Assembly (NCBI GenBank): GCA_965219995.1
Contig: CBDCOX010000002.1
Coordinates: 2,592,001 to 2,656,000, forward strand
Origin: Candidatus Latescibacterota bacterium
GTDB taxonomy: Bacteria; Latescibacterota; UBA2968; GCA-2709665
Direction of reading: 5' to 3'
Length of the DNA: 64,000 bases
Of this stretch, positions 26,876 to 55,483 are shown piece by piece. How positions within the stretch are numbered: position 1 is the first letter of the stretch; every line of letters begins with the position of its first letter. Below the pieces are notes generated by a model that saw nothing but the letters and a program-made list of their open reading frames with translations, did no database searches and was not told the origin of the DNA. Both the position numbers and the translations under genes were made by a program.

Positions 26876-28072
26876 TCAAACGTACCGCCACGCCCATCGG
26901 CGCACAGCGCGGCTCAATCTGGCGAGGCGGACCCGCCCCACGAGGGGGTAAACAGGAAGGAACAGGAGTTGGGGCCACAGCGCCAATACGCTGGTTGGCG
27001 CCTGGTCCGGCAGATTCCGGTATGGCGGAACTACGCAAAGAGACGGTGGCCACAGATGTGCGTCAAAGCCGGCGTCCCAGAGTCGCCGGCACAGGTCCGC
27101 GGCATTACCGACGCGGACGACGAAGAGCCAGTAGGAGTGGTCCGCGCGACGACCCGGATAACAGAGCTCCGGAACGCTTCGGTGAAACGCCATGGCCTCC
27201 GTACGGCAGCCTGTGCGCTCCGGTGCATTGGAGCGCAGTCGCCTCGACAATAAATACAAATGGGCGCCGCATGGTTGACGGCGGATTTTCTTGAGCAGTT
27301 CCAACCCCCGGAAACCGCGGGTTGCGCGGTAACTCACGGCATCGTGCGACCTTCCCAACAGACGGCACGCGGCGCATAGAAGCGTATATGGACCGGGCAT
27401 GTTGAGCAGGAGAACGACGCCGTATTTCGCGAGGCGCAAGAAGAACCGCGCCTTGCCCTGGACCGGATAGCTGTAATGCAGCCGTCTGACCTCGTCCCTA
27501 AGGTCGGGATCGCGCACAAAGAGCAGGCCGCCGCCCAACGCGGTATTGTATTTGATCGGGCCGAAGCTGAACATACGCACGTGGCTCTCAGGATGTCCTG
27601 TAAAGTCGTCACCCCGATAGGCCTGGGCGCAGTCCTCGAACAGCACAAGGCCATGCTTCCTGGCGAAGCGTACCACAGGATCCATGGGGATCCGGGCGCC
27701 GAACAAATGGGTGGCCAGCAGCGCAACGGCTTTCGGCGTAAGCCCGTCGTTCAGGCTGTCCGGGTCGGGTTCGAGCGTTTGGGGATCCAGATCGACCGGA
27801 ACGGGTACGAGACCGTGGCTCCGGATGATTTCGAGTATGTCGGGGATGGTGATGGCGGACACCAGGATGTGCGAACCACGCGGAAATCGGGCAGCCTGGA
27901 GAACGGCATCGAAGCCGCTGCGAAGCGAAAGGAAGAAAAGGGCCTCGTCCGGATTGCCGGTGCTTTCGCGGCAGGCATCGTGCCCTTTCGCGCGACGGTC
28001 GCCCGAGAGGCATTGGCCCATGCCGAAAAGGAGATCGCGCCAGCCGATATCCAATCTCTTACGGGGAATCAT
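26876..28072 (-). CDS. DegT/DnrJ/EryC1/StrS family PLP-dependent aminotransferase
   Basis: SLRSGFD, THLFG, FEDCAQA, FSFGPIK (PLP lysine), GGG; start at MIPRKRLDIG. Confidence 0.85.
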   Translation of the reverse strand: MIPRKRLDIGWRDLLFGMGQCLSGDRRAKGHDACRESTGNPDEALFFLSLRSGFDAVLQAARFPRGSHILVSAITIPDILEIIRSHGLVPVPVDLDPQTLEPDPDSLNDGLTPKAVALLATHLFGARIPMDPVVRFARKHGLVLFEDCAQAYRGDDFTGHPESHVRMFSFGPIKYNTALGGGLLFVRDPDLRDEVRRLHYSYPVQGKARFFLRLAKYGVVLLLNMPGPYTLLCAACRLLGRSHDAVSYRATRGFRGLELLKKIRRQPCGAHLYLLSRRLRSNAPERTGCRTEAMAFHRSVPELCYPGRRADHSYWLFVVRVGNAADLCRRLWDAGFDAHLWPPSLCVVPPYRNLPDQAPTSVLALWPQLLFLPVYPLVGRVRLARLSRAVRRWAWRYV

Positions 28073-28425
28073 GGACGATTCACTCGTTCGCGGGCGCGGT
28101 CGGACACGATGATGCGGTATGGGAGGACTGATGCAGCATGGGGTGAACGCTTTGTCGGGTTGTGCAAGTTCTTCCGGCCCCGTAGAATCATACATCCTCA
28201 ATATTTGCGCATGAACATCCCGATTCCCTCCAAAATACCGACATCCTGTCGCAATCTGCAACACATTAATTGACTTCGAAATCGCAATGCAGGGACGCCG
28301 ACGTGCGCTATCCATGTTTCGCATGCGTGGATCGTAGACGCGCGTTTCTTCCCCTGCTTCGTCCTTTTCCCGGGAGAGCGTCGTAGACGATTGCCCGGGC
28401 GAGGGCATCTGTGCGGGACGTGCCA

Positions 28426-29253
28426 TCAGGCGGGCTCCTGTTCATCGGGCGTTTCGACCGGCTTCGCTTCGCGCTGCGCCATTTGATTGAACCACCACAG
28501 ACCGGCCACGGCCAGGACGATGCCACTCACAAACAACCACCAGGGAAGAAACTCTACAACCTGCCAATCCTCGATAGGTCGGAATAATTCCATACGCACC
28601 GTAATCAACGACAGAAAATTGTTCAGCGCGTGACCGAACAACGCGGGCAGCAAGGAACCTGTATGTACGACCCACCACGCAAATGCGAGACCCAGTGTCA
28701 GAGATCCCGGAAATTGCCAGGGATTCATATGGAGCGCGGCAAACAGAAACGCGGACCACAGAATGGCACGCCGCCGGGTACCGTGGGCTAACAGCCCGCC
28801 CAGAATAACACCTCTGCAGAGGACCTCCTCGGTAAGAGGCGCTTGAATCGCCAGAACATAAAACGCAAGACCAAATGGTGTTTTGCTGCCCATTATATCA
28901 AGGAACATGTCGAGAAATTCTTTGGGGACTGGAATCAGATACTGCACGAAGCTTGCAAGGTTGGACAAGAAAATGCCCAATCCCACGATCGAGACGGAAA
29001 CGGGTAAGTACAACTTCCACGGAACTGGCTTGAAAAGCAGGACGTCGGACCACGGCCGACCGGACCGACGTTGCGCATATAGCACGATCAGACCAATAGC
29101 GGGCAGATTTACAATCAATACCAGGTAATCGAAGATCCGTGTCGCATTGCCCGACGCGACGCCGAGGAAATGAAGCGCCAACCCCAATGCGTTCATTGCT
29201 ACCAAAAGCAGGACCATCAACCAGACGGATTGCTTCAGATTCGGATAAGCCAT
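28426..29253 (-). CDS. CPBP/Abi (CAAX-type) intramembrane glutamic protease, paralogue 1
   Basis: EEVLCRG, FAALH, HALNN motifs; multiple TM helices; GAGG RBS before MAYPNLKQSVW. Confidence 0.92.
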   Translation of the reverse strand: MAYPNLKQSVWLMVLLLVAMNALGLALHFLGVASGNATRIFDYLVLIVNLPAIGLIVLYAQRRSGRPWSDVLLFKPVPWKLYLPVSVSIVGLGIFLSNLASFVQYLIPVPKEFLDMFLDIMGSKTPFGLAFYVLAIQAPLTEEVLCRGVILGGLLAHGTRRRAILWSAFLFAALHMNPWQFPGSLTLGLAFAWWVVHTGSLLPALFGHALNNFLSLITVRMELFRPIEDWQVVEFLPWWLFVSGIVLAVAGLWWFNQMAQREAKPVETPDEQEPA

Positions 29254-29391
29254 CCTCTTCCTCGTTTCTTGTTGAACGGATGACAACACATCGAGCGGTC
29301 CGTTTTCCCTTAGAGTCGGGCGACGATGTGTGCCCTGTCTTCTTTGCTGACTCATACAACCTGCAGCGACTGATCTTCCCTTTGACGCCGG

Positions 29392-30231
29392 TTACAACGC
29401 AGCGCCATCAGACTCGTCGTCAACCGGTGTTTCCACTTGCGCCTCGTGGCCTTTCGCCATCCTGCAAAACCACGTCAATCCGATAACGGCCAGCGCGATC
29501 CCGCACAACTGCAGCCACCAGGGAAGATACACCAGAACATCCCAATTCTCCATGGGTCCGAACAATTCCAAACGAACTGACGTCAGCGACAGGAAATTGT
29601 TCAGCGCGTGTCCGACCAGTGCCGGTATCAGCGAACCGGTCTGGATCACCCACCAGGCGAAAACCAACCCCAATATAAGCGCGACAGGGAATTGCCACGC
29701 GTTTGCATGGAACAGCGCAAACAGGACCGCCGACCAGACAATGGCCCTGTTTCGCGTTCGGTGGGCCAGCAACCCCCCGAGGATGACCCCTCTGAAAAAA
29801 ACTTCCTCCGCGAGCGGCGCCTTAACTACCATCACAAAAAAGGCAAATGGATAGGGAGTTTCCTTCCCTGCCAGATCCCCGATTAGATTCAGCAATATTT
29901 CCGGCACCGGGATCAGCTGCCGCATCAGAGTTCCAAGGTCCGTGCAGACGATCGCCAATCCGACAACCGACACGACGAGCGGAAGGTACAGCATCCGGGA
30001 AACTGGTTTGAGGAGCAGAATCTCGTCCCAGTTCCGATCGGTTCGTCGGTGTGCGTAGATCACGGTCAAAACGAAGCTTGCCAAACTCAGGATCCACATT
30101 AGATATGGACTCTGTTGTAACGGCACGTCGAGGATAAATTCCAGTATCGCAACAGGTACACCAAGTGCCATGCCAATAAGCAAGAGCAATATCAGTAGCC
30201 ATACGGATTGCTTCAGGTTCGGATACGCCAT
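29392..30231 (-). CDS. CPBP/Abi intramembrane glutamic protease, paralogue 2
   Basis: EEVFFRG, FALFH, HALNN; same N-terminus MAYPNLKQSVWL as paralogue 1; GGAGG RBS. Confidence 0.92.
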   Translation of the reverse strand: MAYPNLKQSVWLLILLLLIGMALGVPVAILEFILDVPLQQSPYLMWILSLASFVLTVIYAHRRTDRNWDEILLLKPVSRMLYLPLVVSVVGLAIVCTDLGTLMRQLIPVPEILLNLIGDLAGKETPYPFAFFVMVVKAPLAEEVFFRGVILGGLLAHRTRNRAIVWSAVLFALFHANAWQFPVALILGLVFAWWVIQTGSLIPALVGHALNNFLSLTSVRLELFGPMENWDVLVYLPWWLQLCGIALAVIGLTWFCRMAKGHEAQVETPVDDESDGAAL

Positions 30232-30273
30232 TGATTCCCTCCTCGTTCGAACATCATCTGCCGGCAGGTTCAT

Positions 30274-30402
30274 TTATCCGGATGCCGCAGCGGCCGCGGA
30301 AGAATCTTCGTTTTCCACTAAATCCAGGTTCGCGCGCCCGAATCGAGCGGCGGGCTTCTCGAGTTCATCATTCCGGAAAATCCCTTGCAGGGAACGGGTC
30401 AT
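30274..30402 (-). CDS. 42-aa small ORF (MTRSLQGIFRNDELEKPAARFGRANLDLVENEDSSAAAAASG)
   Basis: AGAGGAG RBS directly before the ATG and a sigma-54 consensus about 37 nt upstream; no recognisable family. Confidence 0.5.
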   Translation of the reverse strand: MTRSLQGIFRNDELEKPAARFGRANLDLVENEDSSAAAAASG

Positions 30403-30438
30403 GTCTCCTCTTGCGATCGTGAACAACCCGAATCGACG

Positions 30439-30455
30439 TGCAAGAAACAGGCCAG
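30439..30455 (-). promoter_or_regulatory. Sigma-54 (-24/-12) promoter for the small ORF and the CPBP pair
   Basis: Minus strand CTGGCCTGTTTCTTGCA = GG-N10-GC with TTGC; AT-rich, IHF-like tract immediately upstream (30471-30500). Confidence 0.7.
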
Positions 30456-31169
30456 ACTTGAGATAAATGGCAATGTATCGTCTATACATCATTTAATTGA
30501 AGGATTCCGGATCGAAGGAGCCCGGCTGTGTCGCAAAAAGCGCCTGACCGCGGTGACGGGTATTCCAGTACGCGCGCACGGAGGGACATAGGCTGCGGTC
30601 CGTGAAGAGATTTGGTGGGCAGTCGAGGGGGCGTACGAAAAAGCGGTGCATTCTGCAGCGCCGGATGCATTCTGCAACGATCGGCGCCGGCCGGAAACCG
30701 CGCGGAAGCGCACGGATCGGCGAGCGGGCATAAAAAAATCCCGTTCCATCCCCTCGCGATTCAGCAATGAACTTTCCGGCGGCACCCCGATTAAAGGGTG
30801 CCGGGCAGTGTCACCACTCACGCAGCTTTGAGGATGCGGGAAGGTCCTGCGTATTCGCCGGGAACGTGGGAGCTACCCATGCCCCTTTGAGTCGGCTGTT
30901 GTATTCGGCAGGCTACCCGACATACGGGTACTGCCCGAGTGGTGACAACCGGAATATAGATTCCGAGACCGGGAATGACAAGGGTTAATTTGCGACTCTC
31001 AAAAAGGGAAATCGCGGAGCCGTCCGAACGCGTGCATCACCAGGGCCGAAAACCGCATTGACGACGGGCTGCAGATGAATTTCTTGCCCGGAAACGGAAG
31101 TCGCACAGCGAGAGGTTGACCGTCGCCGTTGGCGAATGGAACCGCGACGCGCCTCCTCTTCGCCTGACA

Positions 31170-31982
31170 TCACGTGTCCGGCATCCGCGACGCCAGCACT
31201 GGATAGCGTATATCCGCCCTCTGTAACTCCCGCTGCAGCCACTGGCTGAACAATGTGTCGCGAATCTCATTGACGACACGATCGTCCAGCGTTGCCGGAT
31301 AGCGCCGCTGCAGCAAATACAGCGCGAAACCGCCCGGCGCCTTTTCAGGACCGAAGATCTCGCCCGGTTCAGCAGCGAAGAGTCGCGCGGCAATACCCTT
31401 CGGCAACTGCTCCCGTCGCAACCGCCCCATAAACCCGCCGGCCGGCCGCGTGCGCTCATCCTGTGAGAACTCGCGCGCCATTGCGCAGAAATCCGCGCCG
31501 TCCTCTCTCGTATGCAGTCCGATTTCGTCTATTACGCCTCGATCCCGGTGGTGAATCCAGCAGACTTCCGCCTCGTCGAAATCCAGCGTGTGCTGTGCGA
31601 AGTACGGTTCGATCCGTCCCTCCGAGACTTTTTCGGACATCATGCGCTCCGATCGCCTCGCGTGGGCGTCTTCCGCAACGTCGCCGAGCGTAATTCCTCC
31701 GGACCGGAGCCAGGCTTCCGTATCTTCCACGCTTTCAAGGCGGTGTCGATACCGCCAGTCGTCGACGTCGCTCTGGATGTCTTCGGGCTTCGGGTGGATG
31801 CCCTCCCTCTCCGCGAGTTGCCGCACGAGTTCTCTTCGAGCGTACTCGCCGAAGAACCCGAGCTTGTCTGCAACGCCCAGATGTCGTACAACCTGCGTCA
31901 GGGACACGTCGATGCCATTGACCCGAACCAGCGATACAGCCCTGGCCGCGTTTGCGGAGTCGTGTTCCTCCGGACGGCGCAT
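31170..31982 (-). CDS. PpiC-type peptidylprolyl isomerase / SurA-like foldase associated with the type I exporter
   Basis: DFCAMAREFSQD...GGFMG rotamase motif, GEIFGP, C-terminal IRDTLFSQWL; TGATG overlap with the HlyD stop. Confidence 0.85.
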   Translation of the reverse strand: MRRPEEHDSANAARAVSLVRVNGIDVSLTQVVRHLGVADKLGFFGEYARRELVRQLAEREGIHPKPEDIQSDVDDWRYRHRLESVEDTEAWLRSGGITLGDVAEDAHARRSERMMSEKVSEGRIEPYFAQHTLDFDEAEVCWIHHRDRGVIDEIGLHTREDGADFCAMAREFSQDERTRPAGGFMGRLRREQLPKGIAARLFAAEPGEIFGPEKAPGGFALYLLQRRYPATLDDRVVNEIRDTLFSQWLQRELQRADIRYPVLASRMPDT

Positions 31983-33382
31983 CACGTCCCGTCCTGGCGC
32001 GCGGACGGCTTTGTCGCGGCATCGTACGTTGCGGACTCGTACAGCTTTCGCAACGGACTCAGCAGCAGCAACAGGACCGACTGCCTGTCCGTCATGATTT
32101 CGGCCGTGCCCTTCATGCCGAAGAGGAGCGGCTTCTCCTGTCCTTTCACGGCCATCGTGGTCTCCTCCAATTCAACGACGCCCTTGAATATCGGCCCGAC
32201 GGTCTCGTCGATGACGGCATCCGGCGAGATCTGCTTGAGCAATCCGCGTTTAATTCCAAAGTCCTGGAACGCGAAAGCGTCGTATTTCAGTTTGACGATC
32301 TGTCCCGGCTTGAGCAGACCCACGTCCTTGTTCAAAACAGTCAGTTCGGCGACAATCGGCGCGGACGCCGGCGCCAGAGTCGCCAGAGCCTGTCCTTTAT
32401 TAATGACCTGTCCGAGCGCATTTACCTCCACCCGGGTTACAATTCCGGCCTCAGGGGCCAGAATCAGGTCCGATTCGGCATCGAGCTGGCGATCGACGCG
32501 TTTGCGCGCCTGATCCAGTCTCAGCCGCGCGGTATTGTGCGCGTGTTTGATCTGGGCGGCCTCGCGACCGTGGGCGATGCGAGCCTCGAGGATCTGGCGC
32601 TTGAGGTCCTGGACCGCCGTTTCGTTCCTGTAGATTTCCGACATGCGTCCGGGAAGCGCCGCGAGGGCGTTCAGATACCTGACGCGCGCGCGATTGATCT
32701 CCGCCCTGCTGATCAGTTGGCGTTCGTACAGCATCTTCTGTTGCAGGTAGTCCTGTTTCAGATGGTCGATTTCGGCCTGGCGAAAGCCGATCTGCGCCTG
32801 CAATTCCGTATCCGATGGGCTCCTTCCGGTACGCTCGAGGCCACCCACGTCGGTCTGGTAATCCTCCAGTGCATTCTGGTGGGCTACCGTGAACCGTTCC
32901 AGAACGGAAAGCCTTTTCTTCAGCGAAGCGATCGTCTCCCGGTTCAATTCAGTCCTTTGAGGCAATACACGGTGGAAATCGTACTCGGCCTTCTGAAACG
33001 CCATTTCCGCCTGTTCGAGTTCACGCAGGTCTCCCCAGGTTTCCCACGATTTGAGCTTGAACAGCAGCGCGCCTTCTTCGATGCGGTCGCCTTCCGTAAT
33101 ACCGATGTATTCGATTTCACCTCCACGGCGGGCCTGCAACGTCTTCACTTTTCCGAGCGGTACGAGCCTGAATGGGGCTGACGCGACTACGTCCACCTTG
33201 CCCCACCACGCCCAGACGACCGCGATGCCGACAAAAAGCAGCACGATATATAGCAGCGCCCGACCCCAAAACGGTCGCAGAGACCCGACAAACGCGCGCA
33301 TGTCATCGGCCGCGTCTTCCCGTTGCCCGGCAACGACCGGCGGCGCTGTACCCGGTGTGGGTTTCGGCGGGCGCCCCGTCAT
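31982..33382 (-). CDS. HlyD family membrane fusion protein of a type I secretion system
   Basis: Single TM helix, VDVVASA..RLVP, EGD.IEEG..L lipoyl half, coiled coil, AP.AG.V, NKDVG...GQ.VKLKYDAF.FQDFG...ISPDA, GMKGTAEI. Confidence 0.93.
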   Translation of the reverse strand: MTGRPPKPTPGTAPPVVAGQREDAADDMRAFVGSLRPFWGRALLYIVLLFVGIAVVWAWWGKVDVVASAPFRLVPLGKVKTLQARRGGEIEYIGITEGDRIEEGALLFKLKSWETWGDLRELEQAEMAFQKAEYDFHRVLPQRTELNRETIASLKKRLSVLERFTVAHQNALEDYQTDVGGLERTGRSPSDTELQAQIGFRQAEIDHLKQDYLQQKMLYERQLISRAEINRARVRYLNALAALPGRMSEIYRNETAVQDLKRQILEARIAHGREAAQIKHAHNTARLRLDQARKRVDRQLDAESDLILAPEAGIVTRVEVNALGQVINKGQALATLAPASAPIVAELTVLNKDVGLLKPGQIVKLKYDAFAFQDFGIKRGLLKQISPDAVIDETVGPIFKGVVELEETTMAVKGQEKPLLFGMKGTAEIMTDRQSVLLLLLSPLRKLYESATYDAATKPSARQDGT

Positions 33383-33409
33383 AGCGCCGGCTCCTCGTGG
33401 GCAGGAAGT

Positions 33410-36400
33410 TCAAGCCACCTGCAACTGCTGGCTGGACATGTGGTAGTAAAGGCCGCGGCGATCCATGAGTTCTTCATGCGTCCCCGTGTCGACGATATGG
33501 CCCTTTTCAAGCACGACAATCACGTCGGCATCCCGCACGGTACTCAAACGATGAGCAATGATCATCGCCGTTCGGTTTTCGAGGAATAGGTCCAGGTTGG
33601 CCTGGATCGCGGCTTCGGAGTCCGTATCCAGTGCGTTTGTGGCTTCGTCGAAGATCAGGATTCCCGGATCGCGATAAAGCGCTCTCGCGATCGCAATCCG
33701 TTGCCGCTGTCCCCCGGACAATCCGATTCCCTGCTCACCGACTTTTGTCTCATATCCCAGGGGCATCTCGGTCACAAAGTCCTGTACACAGGCCATTCTC
33801 GCCACTTCAAGGACCCGATCCATATCGGCGTCCGCTTCTCCGACCGCAATGTTCTCCGCAATCGTACCGCTGAACAGGAACGGATCCTGCATCACCATGC
33901 CCACCTGGCGCCGAAGCCAGTGCGGATCCAGGTCGCGCACGTCCATCCCGTCGAGGGTCACCCGCCCTTCAGAGGGATCGAACAGGCGCGGCACCAGCTT
34001 CACCAGCGTGGTCTTGCCCGCCCCGCTCCGCCCTACGATTGCGACTTTGCGTCCCGGTTCGAGGACGAGGTTGATATTGTTCAACACGTAGGGTTCGTCG
34101 GAGCCCACGCCGTACCTGAAAAACACCTCGTCGAATTCCACGCGCCCTCTCACCCGTTTCAGTCTCATGCCTTGTCCTCGCTGGCGCGCGTCCTCCATCT
34201 TCGCGTCGTACACGTCGTTCAGCCTGTCCAGTGCGACGCGGGCTTCCTGCACTTCCGGCCAGACGCCGATCAACCCCATTACAGGTCCCATCACGTTGCC
34301 AATGAGCGCGTTGAACGCCATCAACTGCCCCACGGACAATTCCCCTTCCATGACCAGGGATGCGCCGTACCACAGGATCACGGTTGAGCTCAACAGATTG
34401 ATCATGCTACCCCCCGCGCCGAACAGCATCTCCATTTTCAGGCGCTTGAACCCGATCTGGACTTCTTTCGTGAACTTCCCTTCCCATTGCCACCGGGTGA
34501 CGCGTTCGACGGCCTCGGCCTTCACCACGTCGACGCCGTGCAATGAGTCGATCAGCACGGACGATTGTTCCGCGCGGGCAAGAAAGGCGCGCTGGCTGAA
34601 GGACTTCAATATCGGCGTATAGATCAGCGTGAGACCCACGGATAGCGGCACGAAAATCAACATCACGAGCGTCAACTCCCAGTTGTAATAGAACATCAGC
34701 CCGAGGTAGACGAATAACATGATGAAGTCCAGTATCGCGGACACGGTTGTATCCGTAAACAGGCGCTGGATTGTTGCGTTCTCCTTGAACCGCGTGGTCA
34801 GATCGCCGGTGCGCCTGAGCGCGAAGAACCGCATGGACAGACCCAGCAGGTGCCGGTAGAACCTGGACAGCATGGTCAGGCTGAGACGCGCGCTGATATA
34901 GCCGATCAGATAGGCGCGTAACGTCGACGTGCCCATCTGGAACAGCGCCACAACGACCATACCCGCCAGCATCAGGTTCAACAGATCCCTGTCATGATGC
35001 ACAAGCACCTGGTCCACGATTGTCTGCGTGAATACCGGTGAAGCCAGCCCGAACAGGCTGAGCACGAGGGACGCCAGCAACACCTCGATCAGGATGGGCG
35101 TATAGGGTTTGATCAACGGGAAGAATCGTCTGAAGGAAGACCTGGAGGGTTCATTCTCGGATACCTGATCCGTGTATTCCAGCAAGAGGGCCATATTTGT
35201 CCAGCTTTTCTCGAACTCCGCACGGGAGAGCGTGCGGATACCCAGGCCGGGGTCGGCGATTCTCACCTTCTTTTTGAATATTTCATACAACACCACGAAA
35301 TGGTTGCCTTCCCAGTGCAGAATCGCCGGAAGCCCGGTCCGCATCAGCGCTTCGTACCCCGTGCGCACGCCCCGCGTGACGAACCCGAGCGTCTCCGCCG
35401 CCTCGGCCAGCGCCGCCATCGACGTGCCCTCGCGGGAAACGTTGCACATATCGCGCAGCCGGTTCAACCCGATCGGCATCTTGTAATACTTGCAGATCAT
35501 TCCCAGACTCGCCGCCCCGCAATCGGACTGATCATGCTGTTTCAGGAATGGATAGCGGAACGACGACGGCGCGCCGTTTCTTCCATCATCCGATTCACCG
35601 CTCCCGGTTCCGTTTGCCGTTCCACTCGCGTCGGCGACGATCTTCCCCTCTGGCGATCGGGCTGCGACCGGGGCGTGCACTTCGGAAGGGCGGGGCCCGC
35701 GGGACGGCGACGCGTTCGAATTTGCTCCTGCATGCAATTGACGCACCAGGGACGTCGCGGACCCGAACGCGGCAGCCGCTTCGCCAAGGTCACGAAAGTC
35801 GCTCTCGTCCAGGTAAAACAGAACACTATCCTGGGTACTGCGGACAACCCGCGGCCCGCCTTCGGAGCGATCGGTTTCTTCGAAGAAATCACCCGCGACC
35901 AAATGACGGGTCCCGCCATCCCCGGACATCATCTCCAGTTCGCCGCTTCCGACCGCGCAGAACCGCCCTCGCGACTGACCGGGACCTGCAACCGTCGCTC
36001 CCTTCGCAATCTCCTCCCGCTTCATACGACGGAACAACCTCCGCATCCCGTCACCGGAAACGGACCCCTTCAGGTATCGGGTGAAATTCCGGTACGCGAT
36101 ATTCGCCACCTGATCCTGGAGATGCGCCTTCAGTTCGGGTTCTCTCTTCATCACGTTGACGAAATCATCCCGTGACACCCGCAACACGTCGGAATTCTCC
36201 ACCGCGCGCACCGTTGCCCGATGCCCGCGACCGGTCAGCAGCGCCCCCTCGCCGAAGTGGTCGCCGGAATACAGGAAACCCAGGGTTTCAGGAAGGCCGT
36301 CCGCATTCCGCCTGATCACTCGCAACCGGCCGGCCTGCACAATGTAGAACGCATCGCCGGATCCCCCCTGATCAAAGACGACCGACCCGAAGGGAAAACG

Positions 36401-36451
36401 AGCGGTTTCAGACTGAATCGGCGACTGTTTAAAGCGGGATAACACGTCCAT
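33410..36451 (-). CDS. Peptidase-containing ABC transporter: two cNMP-binding domains + C39 peptidase + ABC TMD/NBD
   Basis: cNMP domain (DQGGSGDAFYIV..G...GDHFGE..LL....RATVRA); C39 QHDQSDCGAASL with catalytic Cys, HWEGNHFVV His, IADP Asp; GRSGAGKT, LSGGQRQ, IFDEAT, IAHRLST. Confidence 0.95.
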   Translation of the reverse strand: MDVLSRFKQSPIQSETARFPFGSVVFDQGGSGDAFYIVQAGRLRVIRRNADGLPETLGFLYSGDHFGEGALLTGRGHRATVRAVENSDVLRVSRDDFVNVMKREPELKAHLQDQVANIAYRNFTRYLKGSVSGDGMRRLFRRMKREEIAKGATVAGPGQSRGRFCAVGSGELEMMSGDGGTRHLVAGDFFEETDRSEGGPRVVRSTQDSVLFYLDESDFRDLGEAAAAFGSATSLVRQLHAGANSNASPSRGPRPSEVHAPVAARSPEGKIVADASGTANGTGSGESDDGRNGAPSSFRYPFLKQHDQSDCGAASLGMICKYYKMPIGLNRLRDMCNVSREGTSMAALAEAAETLGFVTRGVRTGYEALMRTGLPAILHWEGNHFVVLYEIFKKKVRIADPGLGIRTLSRAEFEKSWTNMALLLEYTDQVSENEPSRSSFRRFFPLIKPYTPILIEVLLASLVLSLFGLASPVFTQTIVDQVLVHHDRDLLNLMLAGMVVVALFQMGTSTLRAYLIGYISARLSLTMLSRFYRHLLGLSMRFFALRRTGDLTTRFKENATIQRLFTDTTVSAILDFIMLFVYLGLMFYYNWELTLVMLIFVPLSVGLTLIYTPILKSFSQRAFLARAEQSSVLIDSLHGVDVVKAEAVERVTRWQWEGKFTKEVQIGFKRLKMEMLFGAGGSMINLLSSTVILWYGASLVMEGELSVGQLMAFNALIGNVMGPVMGLIGVWPEVQEARVALDRLNDVYDAKMEDARQRGQGMRLKRVRGRVEFDEVFFRYGVGSDEPYVLNNINLVLEPGRKVAIVGRSGAGKTTLVKLVPRLFDPSEGRVTLDGMDVRDLDPHWLRRQVGMVMQDPFLFSGTIAENIAVGEADADMDRVLEVARMACVQDFVTEMPLGYETKVGEQGIGLSGGQRQRIAIARALYRDPGILIFDEATNALDTDSEAAIQANLDLFLENRTAMIIAHRLSTVRDADVIVVLEKGHIVDTGTHEELMDRRGLYYHMSSQQLQVA

Positions 36452-36540
36452 TGTATCTCTTCGCAAATGGCAGGTCTATTCGAACGTTTGGCTGTTAACC
36501 AATGTCACATTGTATACTGTGCGTCAACTATCGGTCCATA

Positions 36541-36560
36541 ACATACTATATATAGTATGT
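36541..36560. promoter_or_regulatory. Perfect 20-bp palindrome upstream of the transporter operon (putative operator)
   Basis: ACATACTATATATAGTATGT is its own reverse complement; lies about 90 bp upstream of the PCAT start. Confidence 0.6.
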
Positions 36561-36615
36561 ATCTGCTCGTAATCCACCGTTTTCAGCCGAAGAAATGTAC
36601 CCCCAATCGACGCTG

Positions 36616-37370
36616 CTACTCCGAGGGTCGGGCTCGGTCCGTCAGTTCCTTCCCTCCATCAGTCCGGTCATCGTCAGGCGGGACCTCACCCTCAGAAACG
36701 GGCTGAACGGGTTTCGCAACCCGGGAAAACCACCACAGTCCAAGCACAGCCAACGCCACCCCGGCCGCGCTGAACCACCACGGATTGAAAAACACAACAT
36801 TGAAGTCTTCCGCTACCTCTAGATATGGTATATCGAAGTGCAACGTCGTGACTCCGATGAGATTGTTCAATGCGTGGCCGAAAAGCGCAGGCCACAAGGA
36901 TCCCGTCCGGAAATACCACCAGGCGAATACGAACCCGTACAATACGGCCGGTGGAAATTGCCAGGGATTGAGATGACCCACGCCAAACAGAAACGCCGAC
37001 CAGAAAATCGCCCTGTTCCTGGTATGGTGTGCCAGCAAACCGGCAAATATCGCGCCTCTGTATAGAAACTCTTCAACGGTCGGGGCGACAAACACGGACC
37101 GGAACACGGCTGAGGAGTAGGATGTTTTGCGCCCGAACTCCGATTTGAAAATGTCCTGGATGAAATCGGGAATAGGAATCAACCGAATTACCGCTTTGTC
37201 CAATTCAAGTAGAACCATCCCGAGACCAGCGATCGAAATTGCCACACAAGGCCACACGCGCCAACTAAAGTCAGTGTTGAACAGTCGACGTATATTTTCC
37301 AGTCCAACTCAGCTCGGCTTGCCAAGTAACCCAAAATGACCAGCAGACTTACGTACGACAGAATCGACCG
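36616..37370 (-). pseudogene. CPBP/Abi protease paralogue 3, frameshifted near 37295 (catalytic part intact at 36616-37257)
   Basis: EEFLYRG, FGVGH and HALNN are present. Upstream sequence in another frame reads SILSYVSLLVILGYLASRAELDW, matching the paralogue segment IYAHRRTDRNW, then shifts into NIRRLFNTDFSWRVW. No intact start is visible. Confidence 0.7.
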
Positions 37371-37587
37371 TAAATTTCGTCGATGAGGCTGTCTGTTAGT
37401 CTTCTAAGTTCACATCGATGCCGAATCGCCTTCCAGGTGATCCGGCATCGACGTGACGACGAAAGACGACGCATTGAACAATTAGTACGCTTGTCTCTCG
37501 GTGATTAAGCCAGTTTACCTGATTGGGTCCGTGTGGAAACCCTATTCCCCCTTCAGATAAACCGACAGCCAGCTTCGGCGATGTCTC

Positions 37588-37866
37588 CTATGTTTTCGTG
37601 CTGCTATCGGCGGAACGCCGGAAGAGCCGGGCCATCACGCTGTCCGCCCATTCCCAATACGACTTTAGAATCCACGGCGTCGCGATCAGACCTCCCGCCA
37701 AACCACCACTTAGCCCAAAGATTACGCTCAGACTTAGTCCAGGAAAGGCATATTCAAGCACCGCGATCAACTGAGGTCCTACAAAGATGGTCCAAAATAG
37801 AACCAAGAGGGCGGTACCGAAAATCGCGCCTTGCCACGTGTCGGAAAGGAAAAATCTACGTTCCAT
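37588..37866 (-). CDS. 92-aa membrane protein, candidate immunity protein
   Basis: GGAGG RBS; two hydrophobic helices, the second with a GLSGGLAGG glycine zipper; directly downstream of the large precursor. Confidence 0.7.
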   Translation of the reverse strand: MERRFFLSDTWQGAIFGTALLVLFWTIFVGPQLIAVLEYAFPGLSLSVIFGLSGGLAGGLIATPWILKSYWEWADSVMARLFRRSADSSTKT

Positions 37867-38045
37867 TTGAGACCTCCACAACGCTTGATGGGACTTCACG
37901 CGGAAATCAAGACGTAACTTCCCGTCTAAATTCCAACGCTTGTGGACACTTCTGAGTACCCAATTCGACCTGAAACACCAAGTATTGTGTTGTTTTACGA
38001 CTCCTCATACACCTGATTAAAAGCGTACGGCGTGAATCCTGCCTT

Positions 38046-38426
38046 TCAACCAGCACACTTGCAGGTACAGGCTGCCTTTTCTGGCGGATCAAGTTCTTTC
38101 TTCAATTCATTAAGGGTATAGCCGACTACACCAACCAACGCACCCGTCCCTGCTGCAATTGCGATTGCTGTTCCGCCGATGGCAGTTCCCGCTGGACCAC
38201 CCAACGCTGACGCGATCGCTGCCGTCCCGTATACGGTCGCTACGCCACCCACGGCACCAGCACCGGCCGCCCAGAGAGCGTCTCCCCAATCCCAGAGACC
38301 ATCGATGCCCGCCATTTCTTCGAAAGTGAGCGTCGACTGATGTATGGGTAACGCCTCGCAAGCATTGTATGTGCCACTTGATTCGAAGTGAGTTCCCAAG
38401 CGATTGTCCAAGGCGATTGTGTTCAT
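38046..38426 (-). CDS. Double-glycine-type precursor peptide A (bacteriocin/microcin-like, 126 aa)
   Basis: TAAGGAGG RBS; leader ends LTFEEMAGIDG(L); Gly/Ala-rich hydrophobic core; C-terminal ACTCKCAG. Confidence 0.85.
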   Translation of the reverse strand: MNTIALDNRLGTHFESSGTYNACEALPIHQSTLTFEEMAGIDGLWDWGDALWAAGAGAVGGVATVYGTAAIASALGGPAGTAIGGTAIAIAAGTGALVGVVGYTLNELKKELDPPEKAACTCKCAG

Positions 38427-38968
38427 GACTTCCTCCTTAAAGACCGATAAAATTAAACGTTAGTAGTTCTGGTAACTTCGGGTACATCCAGTTACACCGC
38501 AATGTTTCATTCCACGCGGTCGTGGGTTTTCGAAACGGTTTTTAGCAATCGACGCGAAAGAACCTGCTGCACAGGACCGTGTCCATGATTATTCCGTTGA
38601 AAACAGACTACAGGATAAGGCCTTGCTTTTAATATAACTAGCTCAGCCATCTTTTTCTGGTTGGTTTCTGAACGGCCTCGACAAGCCCCACGCAACGTTC
38701 GCCCATGTGTTAACTGATGGCTGTTTGGCAACTGGATGAATTGCTGGGCAGAGGACAATGTCTTACGTGTTTTGCCGCCGCTTCAGCCAGATTCGTTGTC
38801 AAACCGACACAACAGGGCATCTCGTCACCCCTTTCTTACATTCTCAGCGATTCGCAGACCCGCCTCATTTGGCGTCCTTGTGAAGAGTCCATCTAACTCT
38901 CCGACAACGGATCACTGGGAAATTATGTAGAGTCAAGTGACGATTCCGTATTGGATGCAACAGGACAA

Positions 38969-39172
38969 CTAAAATGTACCTCTTGGCCTTTCCGGCTCCG
39001 GCAACGTTACGCCGAATATCTCCGCGACCCAATTTCTGAGAAGACGGCCCAACCCGGCGTCGCCACCGGAAATCTGCGCGGTCTGGCCTGCGGTCAGGTC
39101 TTCCGTCTGAACCGGCAGACGGGCCGGAACTTCGTGAGACGCCGCAGGGCTCGATGCAATTCTTCTGTTCAT
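38969..39172 (-). CDS. Double-glycine precursor peptide B (67 aa; 30-aa core DAGLGRLLRNWVAEIFGVTLPEPERPRGTF)
   Basis: AAAGGAGGTG RBS before ATG 39172; leader ends LPVQTEDLTAGQTAQISGG; hidden inside the longer 177-aa ORF of the track. Confidence 0.8.
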   Translation of the reverse strand: MNRRIASSPAASHEVPARLPVQTEDLTAGQTAQISGGDAGLGRLLRNWVAEIFGVTLPEPERPRGTF

Positions 39173-39398
39173 GTCTCTCACCTCCTTTCTCCAGCATCCT
39201 CGCGACGTCCGGACAATCGTGTTGCCCCTCCGATCACCGGATTCGCGCCGCGCGGATGCATTGATGTCCGAAGCGTCTGTAACCCTTCTTCCTCCCGAGG
39301 CATTCGCCCCTCGGGAGGCGGCTTCGGCTTTGAACCAATGGGTACGTTTTGTTGCAGAACGCGAGCGCGGTCTGCAACGCTGTCGACGCATTGGAACC

Positions 39399-39413
39399 GC
39401 AAGGACTGTGCCA
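39399..39413 (-). promoter_or_regulatory. Sigma-54 (-24/-12) promoter upstream of the precursor genes
   Basis: Minus strand TGGCACAGTCCTTGC = TGGCAC-N5-TTGC consensus. Confidence 0.75.
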
Positions 39414-39584
39414 CTCGCGACACCCCCCGGCATAACTGTCTGGCCTGCAAATGCGAATCGATTTGGAGGCTTCCGGGAGGCCGACGTCTCTCGGCGAATC
39501 ATTGAAATTTGTGTTCCATTCTGCGTCAGTCAGATGAAAACATATTGCCTGTGGCGCCTCAGAGAATCCACCCGGGACCGATGC

Positions 39585-39615
39585 AAAAAAACACCGGCGA
39601 CATAGGTCACCGGTG
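39585..39615 (-). terminator. Possible intrinsic terminator (or palindromic regulator site)
   Basis: Minus strand CACCGGTGAC-CTAT-GTCGCCGGTG followed by T7. Confidence 0.5.
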
Positions 39616-39885
39616 CATTCATCGAGAACAAAAAGGGGTTATGTCACCCCTTGTTCCGCCGAGAATGATCGGATAGGCAGGAAGACAATGAGAAGCGAAG
39701 AGGACCCGCAATCGGCCGTTTCAAATGACAAGAATTCCGGTTGCCGAGGTTCTGGGATATCGTTAAACTTGGAGACAATGTGGTAGAGCGCGCAACGGAA
39801 CGCCAGTTTGATGAAGCTCTTCGAACTGCAGCGTCTCCAATGGGCCCGAACTGCGTCCCACCTCCACGCCAGCCCAACGAAATCC

Positions 39886-40329
39886 ATGCCTCAATTCGGA
39901 AAAATCCTGTCTCCCACGTTCGGGAAATTCCTGGTCACCGGTCTGGGCGGCGTATTCGTCAATCTCGGTTCGTTTCAACTGATGCTCACGCTCGGCGTGC
40001 ACCCGCTGCTGGCGTCGCCAATTGCGATCGAGCTTTCGATCATCTCCAATTTCCTGCTCAACAACTACTGGACCTTCCGCGACCGCTCGCTGTCCGGAAG
40101 GCGGCGGATCCGGGGGTTGAAGTATCATGTTGTTTCGTTTGTGACGCTGTTGCTGAGCTACGGCACCTTCGTGTTGCTCTCCGTGTTGTTCACGGATGTG
40201 CCGCTGATCATCCTGCAGGGATGCGCGATCGCCCCGGCCGGCGTGCTGAACTACTCCGCCAACTCTCTCTGGACGTTTCGTGAAGCAGCGAATGAGGATA
40301 GCAGCGACGTCCGGGACGGAACGGGATGA
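39886..40329 (+). CDS. GtrA family protein (lipid-linked sugar translocase)
   Basis: KFLVTGLGGVFVNLG, ELSIISNFLLNNYWTFR, NY..N..WTF; ATGA overlap with the next gene. Confidence 0.9.
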   Translation: MPQFGKILSPTFGKFLVTGLGGVFVNLGSFQLMLTLGVHPLLASPIAIELSIISNFLLNNYWTFRDRSLSGRRRIRGLKYHVVSFVTLLLSYGTFVLLSVLFTDVPLIILQGCAIAPAGVLNYSANSLWTFREAANEDSSDVRDGTG

Positions 40330-42407
40330 ATCGCGCGCGCGCCAGGCCTGAAGCATTCGAACCGACCCGCGACGCCGCCGCTCTGGCCGCGTCCATCCTT
40401 GGTCCCCTCGCCCTGTACGTGCTTACGATGCCGCGAACCGTTGTTCTGGAAGACGACGGTTTGTTTCTGATGGCCGGCGCGCACCTGGGCGTGGCCCATC
40501 CGCCTGGATACCCTCTTTACACGTTTATTGTCTATCTCTTCACCCTGTTGCCCTTCGGCAGCGCCGCCTTCCTCGGCCATCTGTCCAGTGCGGTGCTCGG
40601 AGCCTCCGCGTGCGGCTGTGTTTACGTCTGCGGTCGCCTGATCGGCACCTCCCCCATTCCCGCCCTGACGGCCGCCTTGCTTTTTGCCGCCTCGGAGCAT
40701 GTCTGGGCTCAGGCCATTGTCACCGAGGTCTACACGCTCAATGCGCTGTTTTTCTTCGGCATCTACGCACTGCTTTTGTATGGCGTCCGCCACCCTGACA
40801 GCGCCGGTATCTGGATCGCCGCCGCGGCCGCCTACGGATTGAGCCTGGCCAATCACGTGCCTCTTATGGTGCTGTCTGCGCCGGGGCTGGCATTGCTCGC
40901 CTTTTCCGTACGGCGGCGTCTATACAGCAAACTTCCACTGCTCCTGGCCATTCTCGTGTGCGGAGCCGCATTGCCCTATGCCTGGATGGTATGGCGGTCG
41001 CATCAGGAACCCTTGATCAATTTCTACGGCTCTATCGATTCCCTGAAGGACTTCTGGTTCTACTTCAGCAGGAAGGGGTACATCGAAGTCGATATCAGCC
41101 CCAGCGCTGGTTGGATCGACCGATTCAGGTTCATGCATTGGCTTGGCAACGAGTTTCTGTGGCAACTCACGCTGCCGGGATTCGCGCTCGCCGTACTCGG
41201 CCTGGTCGTTCTTTTGCGGAGGCGGCAGGTCGCGGTTGCTGCATCGGGACTGCTGGTCTTCCTGGCAAACAGCGTACTGCTGATCGTGCTGCTCCGCTTC
41301 GATTTCGACTATTTCCAGGTTGCGGTCTTCCGGCCCTATTCAATCTTGTGTTACGGTCTGCTGGCGTTGTGGCTGGGCATTGGATTGCAGTTTGCCTTCA
41401 ACCGGTTGAGATGGACGCCGGCCAACCGTCCTTCGCGCAAGAAGATGATTAATTCGGGTGCGACAACGCTCGCCTGCATTCTTCTGGTCGGGTGGACGGT
41501 ACGTGCGCACTGGCAGGCCAACGATAGAGCCGACGCCGTGTTCGCGGAACACTACGCTGAACTGCAGTTCGACCTCCTGCCAAGAGACGCGGTACTGTTC
41601 GTATTCGGCGACGCCACCGGCCCGACAGGCTACTACAGATATGTCGAACAGCGGCGTCCGGATGTCACGCTGTACAATCTGCAGGGACTCGTCTACGGCG
41701 ATCGCCTGTTCAACCCGTTCATGTCGACGAAGAAGAAGAATGAGGTCCTCGAACGATTCATCGATTCGAACGAACGGGCGATATTCCTGCCGCTGGACGT
41801 CGATACGTATCCCAGCCGCGAACTACGGATCTATGGCTTGCTAATGGAGGCGGCCAGGGGCGGCAAACCCGGAACGATAAAGTTGAAGCGCCATCCCCGC
41901 GGAGAGGAATTCTTCGTCCAGCTCGTCAATCAGCGTCCCACGGACCGCTGGGAGCGCGTCCGGCGAAACGAAATGTTGTTCCACTACGGGCGTTATCTGG
42001 GGTTGGCCTTTTTCACCGGAGACCCGATATTCCAACAGATGCAGGAACCGTTCCGGCTCGCGCACGAGAGCTATGCAAGCCTCATCGGGATGGCTACCGT
42101 CGTCCTTGATAACGGAAATGCCGCTCATTGGCCGCAGGTCGCCGAATGGCTGACCCGCGCGGAGGGCCTCAGGCACGAAGCACTGAAAAAGAAAACCCTT
42201 GCGGAACTGTATTTCCACAAGGGAAGACTGCTGCAGAATCAGGGACGAACGAACGCCGCCGTCGCGTCGTTCAGGAAGTCCCGGGACATTTATCCCCATC
42301 CACGGAACAAGGCGCTCAAAGCCCTGGATCAATACAAAATCGACTTCAAGCGGGTCGTTCCCGCCGGTCCAAAAACCCCGAATCCCAGTGTGCCCTCGCC
42401 CCGATAG
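40326..42407 (+). CDS. DUF2723/TMEM260-like GT-C membrane glycosyltransferase with a C-terminal TPR
   Basis: LYVLT.P.TV..ED.G, LGVAHPPGYPLY, WAQAIVTEVYTLN, GLSLANH, FGD, RRPDV. Confidence 0.88.
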   Translation: MNRARARPEAFEPTRDAAALAASILGPLALYVLTMPRTVVLEDDGLFLMAGAHLGVAHPPGYPLYTFIVYLFTLLPFGSAAFLGHLSSAVLGASACGCVYVCGRLIGTSPIPALTAALLFAASEHVWAQAIVTEVYTLNALFFFGIYALLLYGVRHPDSAGIWIAAAAAYGLSLANHVPLMVLSAPGLALLAFSVRRRLYSKLPLLLAILVCGAALPYAWMVWRSHQEPLINFYGSIDSLKDFWFYFSRKGYIEVDISPSAGWIDRFRFMHWLGNEFLWQLTLPGFALAVLGLVVLLRRRQVAVAASGLLVFLANSVLLIVLLRFDFDYFQVAVFRPYSILCYGLLALWLGIGLQFAFNRLRWTPANRPSRKKMINSGATTLACILLVGWTVRAHWQANDRADAVFAEHYAELQFDLLPRDAVLFVFGDATGPTGYYRYVEQRRPDVTLYNLQGLVYGDRLFNPFMSTKKKNEVLERFIDSNERAIFLPLDVDTYPSRELRIYGLLMEAARGGKPGTIKLKRHPRGEEFFVQLVNQRPTDRWERVRRNEMLFHYGRYLGLAFFTGDPIFQQMQEPFRLAHESYASLIGMATVVLDNGNAAHWPQVAEWLTRAEGLRHEALKKKTLAELYFHKGRLLQNQGRTNAAVASFRKSRDIYPHPRNKALKALDQYKIDFKRVVPAGPKTPNPSVPSPR

Positions 42408-52404: not shown

Positions 52405-52714
52405 CGGTTGATCGGCTTGTTACCTTGATCCGATACCGAGACTCACCCGAATTGTCGGACAAACCCAATCTGACAACAGATTCGCGGGTTTCAAATCGCG
52501 TCTTGGATTAGAATTTCGACATGGTGGATAGGCGGTTACTACCCTTTCGGGACCCGCCATCTCCATTCACAAGATTTCACGCGGAAACTCCTCAAACAAC
52601 GAACGTCCTCTGCTGATATCTTAGAAATTCCTCCGCCTAAATCTCCTGTTTTCCTCTAAACATTCCTACTCGCCAGCCAAAATCGCGGCGGTCGAGACGG
52701 ACCGGCACGAAGGT

Positions 52715-52879
52715 CTATGCGCCCCTAAGCTTTGGTTCTTCACAAAGCGCAAGCTTCGTATCCGCGGTTGGGTCATTGACCATTCGGCAGGTGATATCGA
52801 TTTCGCCACGCACGTGGACGAGTAATTATCCAATTGCCGCCTCAATTTCCTGGCCTAACGGAATTCGATCAGTTGACAC
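52715..52879 (-). pseudogene. Remnant of a small XRE/YiaG-like antitoxin-type regulator
   Basis: After an AAAGG RBS: VSTDRIPLGQEIEAAIG*LLVHVRGEIDITCRMVNDPTA..., which resembles the N-terminus of such antitoxins; in-frame TAA and loss of the HTH. Confidence 0.45.
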
Positions 52880-52949
52880 TTGCCTTTCTCACGTCCCACA
52901 AAATACAGCATAGATGCCGTCGTCTCGCGTCAATCTGAGCAGGTTGAAA

Positions 52950-53990: not shown

Positions 53991-54054
53991 AACTGACCTC
54001 GTAGGAATTCAAATTGCATATCGTGCAAGACATCCGTCTGCCCTGATCTCACCA

Positions 54055-55320: not shown

Positions 55321-55483
55321 CGGGTCCTCCGGGTTAAGTGGCGGCTCAATGGAACGAACTCGCATTAAGTCGGTCACAATGTGGTATCGATATCCTGCAT
55401 CAATAATGTATCGAACTTAATGTCGCTATCCAGCATTTTTCGACACGGAACCGAGCGACCGTACCAATCTGTCGCTTCTCCTT

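Follow-up and report, generated by a model that had tools for sequence, protein, structure and literature searches.

Colicin V and the class IIa microcins are exported by CvaB, an ATP-binding cassette (ABC) transporter that bears a peptidase domain (PCAT), together with the HlyD-type adaptor CvaA and TolC, and a small membrane protein confers immunity. The subject of this analysis is a comparable locus in a 64,000-nucleotide stretch (the window) of the genome of a Candidatus Latescibacterota bacterium, an uncultured marine bacterium (assembly GCA_965219995.1, contig CBDCOX010000002.1, positions 2,592,001 to 2,656,000 of the forward strand). Between window positions 39616 and 28426, a co-oriented gene array on the minus strand encodes two predicted precursor peptides (preB and preA), a small membrane protein, CPBP-family proteins, a PCAT, an HlyD adaptor and a PpiC-type protein. 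From comparison with related loci we consider it probable that this is a sigma-54-dependent, microcin-like (colicin-V/class-II-bacteriocin) multi-peptide export and immunity operon. Its likeness to the colicin V system lies in the diderm host, the C39-ABC and HlyD genes beside genes for double-glycine (GG) leaders, the unlinked TolC-type genes and the gene for a small membrane protein. There are also a number of differences: (i), the transporter carries two N-terminal cyclic-nucleotide-binding-type (cNMP) domains; (ii), the locus encodes a dedicated SurA/PrsA-like parvulin protein; (iii), it has a sigma-54 promoter; (iv), its immunity candidates are CPBP proteins, with DUF3267 proteins in relatives; and (v), the leaders are 37-44 residues long and belong to no library family.

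Other described systems share single traits with the locus. The class IIb systems plantaricin EF-PlnI, plantaricin JK-PlnL and sakacin 23K-SkkI have GG leaders, GxxxG-type motifs and precursor genes followed by that of a CPBP/Abi protein (PMC8538875), but their hosts are monoderm Firmicutes with three-component regulation and no HlyD or TolC, and the Bacteriocin_IIc model does not match the window peptides. HetC of Nostoc PCC 7120 similarly fuses an N-terminal cNMP-type domain to a C39 peptidase and ABC exporter (PMC10986499), whereas the window protein has two such domains and conserved, predicted cargo genes next to its own. MirC of the rosaritide graspetide cluster, a TIGR04500 protein, is a SurA-like/parvulin-type protein encoded with a PCAT (PMC13097080); unlike MirC, the window protein lacks the N-domain of about 80 residues, and its locus holds no ATP-grasp or other modifying enzyme. 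NHLP/Nif11-type cassettes (TIGR03796/TIGR03794) also combine long-leader GG peptides with C39-ABC and HlyD proteins, but the window proteins score far below the cut-offs, and at E<=0.01 none of the NHLP and Nif11 models matches the leaders. An earlier note on this DNA held the trio of cNMP-C39-ABC transporter, HlyD and isomerase to be mainly known from cyanobacteria. That attribution could not be confirmed: PMC3140520, a study that mined cyanobacterial genomes, has no mention of cyclic nucleotides, an isomerase, CAAX proteins or immunity, the characterised TIGR04500 member is actinobacterial (PMC13097080), and the hits of PCAT residues 1-300 in a word index came almost exclusively from the same lineage, which makes that search uninformative on cyanobacterial relatives. 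The note did not recognise the combination as a described one, and literature searches on PCATs, CPBP immunity, Latescibacter bacteriocins and sigma-54 likewise brought up no description of it.

Gene content and export core

The genes and elements of the locus are listed below in the direction of transcription, ending with the first gene beyond it.

39591..39616, minus strand: terminator-like hairpin with an 11-bp stem and a T-run, just upstream of the locus
39500..39552, minus strand: conserved imperfect palindromes GCAAyA..GTTTCA and TGGAACAC..TTCA, from an alignment of the window with 13 loci
39399..39413, minus strand: sigma-54 -24/-12 element TGGCACAGTCCTTGC, an exact match
39173..39388, minus strand: 5' leader of about 215 nt, conserved in length
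38969..39172, minus strand: predicted precursor preB, 67 aa; ribosome-binding site (RBS) GGAGG
38046..38426, minus strand: predicted precursor preA, 126 aa; RBS AAGGAGG
37588..37866 (frame open from 37899), minus strand: small two-transmembrane (TM) protein, 92 aa counted from M12, the start being taken from relatives
36616..37373, minus strand: CPBP1 pseudogene; PF02517 match, frameshift near 37296-37299
33410..36466, minus strand: PCAT, 1018 aa; two cNMP domains, C39, ABC_membrane and ABC_tran
31982..33382, minus strand: HlyD-family periplasmic adaptor, 466 aa; HlyD_3 and HlyD_D23 matches, arranged with its neighbours as is typical of operons
31170..31985, minus strand: PpiC-type, SurA/PrsA-like parvulin protein, 271 aa; Rotamase match
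30440..30454, minus strand: second sigma-54-like element TGGCCTGTTTCTTGC, with GG and GC kept and 2 mismatches, from a pattern scan
30274..30402, minus strand: 42-aa open reading frame (ORF) MTRSLQG...AAAASG; RBS GAGGAG; ends at the CPBP2 start
29392..30273, minus strand: CPBP2, 293 aa, intact, Rce1-like; motifs EEVFFR, FALFH and HALNN
28426..29355, minus strand: CPBP3, 309 aa, intact; PF02517 match
26876..28426, minus strand: DegT-family gene, whose ATG overlaps the CPBP3 stop by one base

Every part that the earlier note had listed for 28426-39615 is present, as judged by ORFs, Pfam and NCBIfam domain matches and RBSs. A transporter-based scan with one genome per species returned 58 loci, of which 40 (L009-L048) were analysed and 39 are true relatives with the full architecture; their source genomes are all Latescibacterota-type metagenome-assembled genomes, a few of which were deposited as Gemmatimonadota. 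Thirteen of these loci form a clade with the window. The order PCAT-HlyD-PpiC, for which the note had proposed a synteny search, is kept in all 37 of the 39 relatives with sufficient contig, L023 and L045 ending at a contig edge. Chance does not account for the arrangement: this core is co-linear in 37/37 loci, and the leader frames described below are confined to the operon strand. In the window clade the PpiC-type gene is followed by two to three CPBP genes and then by the DegT gene; upstream of the transporter, related loci are mosaics in which precursor genes precede CPBP, small TM or DUF3267 genes.

The N-terminal 440 PCAT residues, sought in 168 genomes of the phylum, found a match in 42, including 14/14 genomes of the window's genus and 21/21 of a genus in a second family of the same taxonomic order, and 3 genomes of two further genera; elsewhere in the phylum only three matches turned up, weak ones that do not extend beyond the C39 domain. 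Many genomes have 2-6 matches, and about 110 related clusters share PF00027, PF03412, PF00664 and PF00005.

The window transporter matches PF00027 in two stretches (5.3e-27), PF03412 (5.4e-39), PF00664 (6.6e-54) and PF00005 (2.3e-33). Since the full-length protein ranked eukaryotic ABCB proteins first in the Protein Data Bank, the C39 domain alone was used for the catalytic alignment, in which Gln310, Cys316, His389 and Asp405 fall on the catalytic positions of LahT150, PCAT1 and ComA. The Cys/His/Asp set is therefore intact as the earlier note had claimed (C316, H389, D405), with the oxyanion Gln310 in addition; at the position of C316, one of the PCAT1 peptidase-domain entries, 7n87, has Ala, and the other PCAT1 entries have Cys. 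The nucleotide-binding domain has a Walker A motif at 812, LSGGQ at 916 and Walker B at 936. Among 17 ABC matches in the genome only one covers residues 1-440, making this the only C39-bearing ABC transporter there. The first cNMP domain keeps the stretch FGEGALL...RATVRA, as does L040, and FGE...RAT is the phosphate-binding-cassette pattern. The adaptor passes Pfam HlyD_3 and HlyD_D23, and the genome has 7 TolC-like genes.

The PpiC-type protein matches PF00639 Rotamase (4.1e-10) and is taken to be cytoplasmic because no N-terminal hydrophobic segment or signal peptide is evident. Its AlphaFold model, built on a 24-sequence alignment, reaches a predicted local distance difference test (pLDDT) score of 73.6 and a predicted TM-score (pTM) of 0.56, and Foldseek relates it to SurA, PrsA and PEB4/Cj1289 (E 1e-8 to 1e-5) with TM-scores of at most 0.38, low global values that are expected for two mobile domains. 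The predicted structure is accordingly that of a SurA/PrsA-like parvulin chaperone. MirC, the studied TIGR04500 protein, is reported to be a chaperone-like partner of the graspetide synthetase in its PCAT-containing cluster and to require its own N-domain (PMC13097080). By analogy, the window protein is likely a chaperone that holds the precursors.

Predicted precursor peptides and their candidate membrane-protein partners

The leader of preB is 37 residues long, reads MNRRIASSPAASHEVPARLPVQTEDLTAGQTAQISGG and ends ...LTAGQTAQISGG (QISGG), and is followed by a 30-residue core, DAGLGRLLRNWVAEIFGVTLPEPERPRGTF (DAGLG...RGTF). That of preA has 44 residues and ends ...LTFEEMAGIDGL (EEMAGIDGL); its 82-residue core is Gly/Ala-rich, hydrophobic and rich in GxxxG-type motifs, and finishes in the tail CTCKCAG. 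Classical double-glycine leaders follow the register LSxxELxxIxGG. In preB, I stands at -4, L at -12 and GG at -2/-1; in preA, G occupies -2, I -4, M -7, E -8 and L -12. The preA-type leader of L023 ends in GG where the others have GL, and because the register fits and L023 has GG at that place, we predict, with reservations, that preA is cut after G-L. Beside the PCAT gene there are, on this reading of the leaders, adjacent genes for double-glycine-type substrates, with GG in preB and GL (GG in L023) in preA.

The earlier note had described these two ORFs as hidden precursors, and the pattern of conservation bears this out: in the 39 related loci the leaders are conserved and the cores hypervariable. 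By tblastn and ORF extraction, only the N-terminal 37-55 residues are conserved, the remainder falling into several unrelated core types. Invariant positions are N8, C23, L26, Q30, L33 and G43 in the preA family (20 sequences) and M1, L19, P20, L26, G36 and G37 in the preB family (25 sequences). All stop-to-stop frames of the 40 loci were then searched with hidden Markov models (HMMs) of both leader families. At E<0.05 the models matched 80 distinct frames, every one of them upstream of the PCAT gene and on its strand, in 39/40 loci (the exception is L033), and none among 9017 frames on the opposite strand; about 48 strong matches are circular, being to the sequences from which the models were built, and about 32 weaker ones are new and independent.

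The new matches reveal further leader subfamilies within the same cassettes, which end in ASGG, ISGG, VSGG, TYGG, FQGG or LHGG; among their cores are glycine-zipper-like helices, and tails of the kind CCCCCCCDD also occur. Poly-cysteine core ends (CCCCCCCDD, RCRCCCCDD) occur at L019:3693 and 5556 and at L048:4541 (starts of the leader matches), and related Cys-rich tails are found in the window preA, L021, L032 and L039. In the window's own genome each leader family is single-copy and located at the locus. A preA-family profile run against 5.8 billion proteins gave 71 clusters, all unnamed or 'hypothetical' and from metagenome assemblies. Three preA relatives (P0040, P0041 and P0050) have sub-threshold matches to Bacteriocin_IIc (PF10439; 10-17 bits against 27.1) and to Gly-zipper models, whereas the window preA matches neither PF10439 nor Gly-zipper and preB does not match PF10439. 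A predicted complex of the C39 domain with preA residues 1-62 scored 0.18 and 0.12 against a mark of 0.32, which is no evidence either way. Two further candidates were rejected: a third, degenerate precursor at 38500-38900, where tblastn matches to preC/preD of L009 and L039 are at chance level and no leader-HMM match is found, and a CAAX-type C-terminal processing signal in preA, since the Cys-rich tails lack a consistent CaaX spacing across relatives.

The small TM gene directly follows 6/6 genes for Gly/Ala-rich preA-type peptides (window, L021, L025, L032, L043 and L044) and none of those with other preA core types; the protein is 55-60% identical in L012, L014, L016 and L032, matches no family, and is found as an orphan copy in L012, L014 and L016. 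It is a candidate immunity protein for the preA-type core, and the variable peptide, cognate membrane protein and orphan copies together resemble the usual toxin/immunity pattern. CPBP genes lie in the cassettes of most loci, and L019 has three consecutive units of preB, a second precursor and CPBP. DUF3267 membrane proteins ('putative zincin peptidase', HEALH motif) are a third membrane-protein type in precursor cassettes (L009:6121-6819 and 8081-8950; also L012, L014, L016 and L039).

CPBP proteins carry the motifs EExxxR, FxxxH and HxxxN/D. All three window copies score above the PF02517 cut-off (65-73 bits against 22.4) with the motifs readable in translation, and 3 of the 5 CPBP matches of the genome sit in the locus. 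The earlier note counted three CPBP proteases; CPBP2 and CPBP3 are indeed intact, and CPBP1 is a truncated, frameshifted pseudogene. Against its intact L009 and L039 orthologues, CPBP1 aligns with residues 40-65 in one frame (37373-37296) and 65-280 in another (37299-36652), has no counterpart of the first ~39 codons and still shows the catalytic motifs. Its body corresponds to one L009 paralogue at 80% and its C-terminal tail to the other, which suggests a recombinant of two paralogues from which the intervening cassette genes were deleted. Among the alignment rows listed, a contig from an independent run spans the site of the frameshift without any difference or gap, so an artefact of one assembly is unlikely. 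A myxosortase-type CPBP sorting system was also considered and rejected, the NCBIfam Mrt-type scores being far below their cut-offs and the peptides having no passenger domain. In Firmicutes, Abi/CPBP proteins are reported as immunity factors for sakacin 23K and plantaricins EF and JK (PMC8538875).

Predicted sigma-54 control and the surroundings of the locus

The element TGGCACAGTCCTTGC is the only 0-mismatch sigma-54 match in the window and lies 241 nt before the preB ATG. As a single site it is not significant, because looser matches (up to 2 mismatches) number 47 in the window against a shuffle mean of 60, not above chance; conservation is what counts. A 0-mismatch site stands 241-245 nt before preB in 13/13 same-clade loci, and the upstream regions of all 40 loci (383 kb) have 49 sites with at most 1 mismatch on the operon strand against 7 on the other, 33/40 loci having at least one. 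In the alignment of the window with the 13 loci, an extended -12 region, the RBS and two imperfect palindromes are conserved as well; the palindromes (39500..39552), upstream of the -24 element by about 90-140 nt, are candidate enhancer sites for a bacterial enhancer-binding protein (bEBP). The genome has one rpoN and 14 strong bEBP matches, none of them linked to the locus. With GG/GC, exact spacing, conservation of the site and RpoN all found, the element qualifies as a predicted sigma-54-dependent promoter, in keeping with the control that the earlier note had proposed. The terminator-like hairpin at 39591..39616 probably insulates the locus from upstream transcription.

From the second element it is 38 nt to the 42-aa ORF and 167 nt to CPBP2. 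The element also occurs in L009, and TGGCTCGyATTTTGC stands at the same place in L012, L014, L015, L016, L037 and L041, giving 8/14 loci with the window included; the other 6 lack it at that place. The 42-aa ORF itself is an internal-Met version of a 72-aa frame, with similarity only in L009 (59%), L039 (67%, last 39 aa) and L017 (37%), so that its coding status is uncertain. In the predicted consensus fold of the operon's 5' leader, a CUUC/CUUU stretch could pair with the Shine-Dalgarno region; the fold has 30 predicted pairs, 6 of them with compensatory changes, and a weak covariation term (-1.86 kcal/mol), and the leader matches no Rfam family.

The spacer of about 680 nt (30493-31169) that separates the PpiC-type gene from the second sigma-54-like site contains no convincing ORF. 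When 28000-40000 was scanned with Rfam, the only match, to sRNA-Xcc1 at 30792-30921, stayed below threshold (28 bits against 53, E 0.2), and the candidate was dropped; the 161-nt region 30780-30940 is unique in its own genome, and a stretch of about 39 nt within it (30891-30930) is matched by several short contigs from other sequencing runs. The G+C content is 0.53-0.55 at the precursor and membrane-protein ends of the locus, 0.585-0.60 in the export core and 0.60-0.63 in the flanks. Beyond the promoter, the opposite flank (39808-42407, plus strand) carries divergent GtrA and TMEM260-like (GT-C type) genes, and GtrA is found in 12/13 and DegT in 13/13 clade-mates. Farther away, at 49552-52404 on the plus strand, a 950-aa fusion protein that joins a helix-turn-helix (HTH) domain to an N6-adenine methylase of the Eco57I type and to a BsuBI/PstI restriction endonuclease sits in a low-G+C island (50001-54000; 0.50 against about 0.60 elsewhere), beside pentapeptide-repeat genes (52950-55377) and an HTH-M78 (IrrE-like) gene (56010-57233).

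Proposed mechanism, alternatives and meaning

The comparative data support the combination that the earlier note had put forward, a double-glycine export core with CPBP proteins and precursors under sigma-54. Gene content, catalytic residues, the leader/core pattern, promoter conservation and the modularity of the cassettes can be read from the sequences compared, and on them we build the following hypothesis. An unlinked enhancer-binding protein would activate the -24/-12 promoter at 39399-39413. The first genes would give preB, with its 30-aa core, and preA, with its 82-aa glycine-zipper-like core, both encoded behind long double-glycine-type leaders. The cytoplasmic SurA/PrsA-like parvulin protein would hold these precursors; the C39 domain would cut preB after GG and preA after G-L, and the ABC part would then secrete the cores by way of HlyD and a TolC-like channel encoded elsewhere in the genome. 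The N-terminal nucleotide-binding domains would gate the transporter, possibly with a ligand other than cAMP or cGMP. Finally, the small two-TM protein and the CPBP proteases would provide producer immunity, CPBP2 and CPBP3 having their own sigma-54-like promoter.

Several observations weigh against this reading of the locus. Similarity to a bEBP (sought with an AAA+ probe) is found in only 1/40 related loci (L043, a fragment-like match at 22 kb) and not in the window, and none of the TolC-like genes is linked to the locus. Neither preA nor preB has a Pfam or NCBIfam match, residue -1 of preA is Leu and not Gly, Ala or Ser, and one of the CPBP copies, CPBP1, is broken. The export proteins fall below NCBIfam cut-offs: the transporter scores 627 against 726 for TIGR01846, 592.4 against 853.3 for TIGR03796 and 511.3 against 523.85 for TIGR01193; the adaptor scores 200.6 against 208.65 for TIGR01843; and the PpiC-type protein reaches 88 bits against 180 for TIGR04500, over profile positions 83-335 of 340. 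TIGR03796 and TIGR03794 are the second-best NCBIfam matches, the latter with 34.6 against a cut-off of 156. In the 98.6%-complete genome neither class I (PF01295) nor class III (PF00211) nucleotide cyclases were found, so regulation by a cyclic nucleotide is doubtful and the cNMP domains may have a ligand other than cAMP or cGMP; the cNMP-type domain of HetC is reported to bind ppGpp in vitro and to be needed in vivo (PMC10986499). As for expression, contigs from an RNA library (one run of a coral-metagenome sample) cover CPBP3, CPBP2, HlyD and the 3' end of the PCAT gene, one of them (37680-38306) extends over the small TM gene and the preA core, showing 0 differences, and 34105-36139 and 38582-40200 have no cover. 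These contigs hint weakly at transcription, as they cannot show strand, start or level and may include carried-over DNA.

A rather unlikely alternative is that the peptides, and especially preB, are secreted signals (pheromones or autoinducers) that the CPBP proteins process. It would suit the behaviour of preB, which is the least variable cargo, stands first after the sigma-54 promoter, occurs once per same-clade locus and has few core types. CPBP proteins can be peptide-processing enzymes, another point that counts against an immunity operon: the CAAX protease SilX of S. anginosus is reported to be needed for maturation of a signal peptide and not for immunity (PMC9298176). HetC, itself a cNMP-PCAT, has been proposed as the exporter of a developmental signal (PMC10986499). 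However, neither the window nor the related loci, to a distance of 10 kb, have a gene for a histidine kinase, response regulator or bEBP. The multiple hypervariable cores, paired membrane-protein genes and orphan small TM copies look instead like toxin/immunity turnover, and preA-type cores are hydrophobic, glycine-zipper-like peptides of 60-90 aa.

That enzymes encoded outside the locus modify the peptides, by glycosylation or at their C-terminal cysteines, as in a pathway for peptides that are made on ribosomes and modified after translation (RiPPs), seems to us unlikely; the export part of such a pathway would overlap with that of a microcin-like operon. The earlier note had called the peptides unmodified, and its observation that neither a RiPP tailoring enzyme nor TolC is visible within the locus held. 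Absence of modification itself is not established, as sister-clade loci among L018-L048 carry genes for a GT28-like protein (23 loci) and a GT1 protein (25 loci) directly before the precursor cassettes and on the same strand (for example L040:6273-7562 and 7724-9127). The pair is kept even in several copies within one genome, and in about 8 sister loci a sigma-54-like site lies 86-141 nt before the GT28 gene. The Cys-rich core tails (CTCKCAG in the window, CCCCCCCDD elsewhere) and the GtrA, TMEM260-like and DegT genes that flank the window locus would also fit modification. Yet no GT28 or GT1 homologue is found in the window or its 13 same-clade loci, and no radical-SAM, LanM, YcaO or ATP-grasp domain in the genes scanned. 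The flanking sugar genes may reflect envelope or peptide glycosylation or else inherited synteny, their order being kept within one genus; L039 retains the peptide locus and has only a fragment of the flank.

That the small ORFs are not cargo at all, being chance or regulatory frames beside a transporter of some other, unlinked substrate, is highly improbable: it could draw on HetC, a characterised cNMP-PCAT whose substrate is given as unknown, with no GG-leader gene near hetC according to the authors (PMC10986499), and on the missing family annotation of preA and preB, but the leaders are conserved as protein across two genera while the cores diverge, the RBSs are strong, leader matches occur on the operon strand only, and each leader family is found within the genome only at this locus.

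Going back to the microcin-like export and immunity operon, there is a bolder and less probable version of it, which we put forward tentatively: the loci might represent a lineage-specific, so far undescribed class of peptide weapons of diderm bacteria, in which a PCAT gated by a ppGpp-like ligand and controlled by sigma-54 exports a recombining cocktail of peptides. These would form a new GG-leader superfamily, with glycine-zipper peptides that end in Cys-rich or poly-Cys tails among its members, would be glycosylated by GT28 and GT1 in sister loci, would be matched by CPBP and DUF3267 immunity proteins, and would be handed to the exporter by the SurA-like chaperone.

The locus provides a cNMP-domain PCAT that, unlike HetC, has conserved predicted cargo next door, which makes the roles of the nucleotide-binding domains and of the SurA-like partner testable in vitro. 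It also brings new GG-leader families with hypervariable cores from an uncultured phylum, and it pairs candidate immunity proteins of the CPBP/Abi type, known from Firmicutes, with an exporter of the type I secretion kind in a diderm. A bacteriocin-like locus would thereby be added to the sigma-54 regulon. That the locus is universal in two genera and often multi-copy suggests a role in competition within their habitat.

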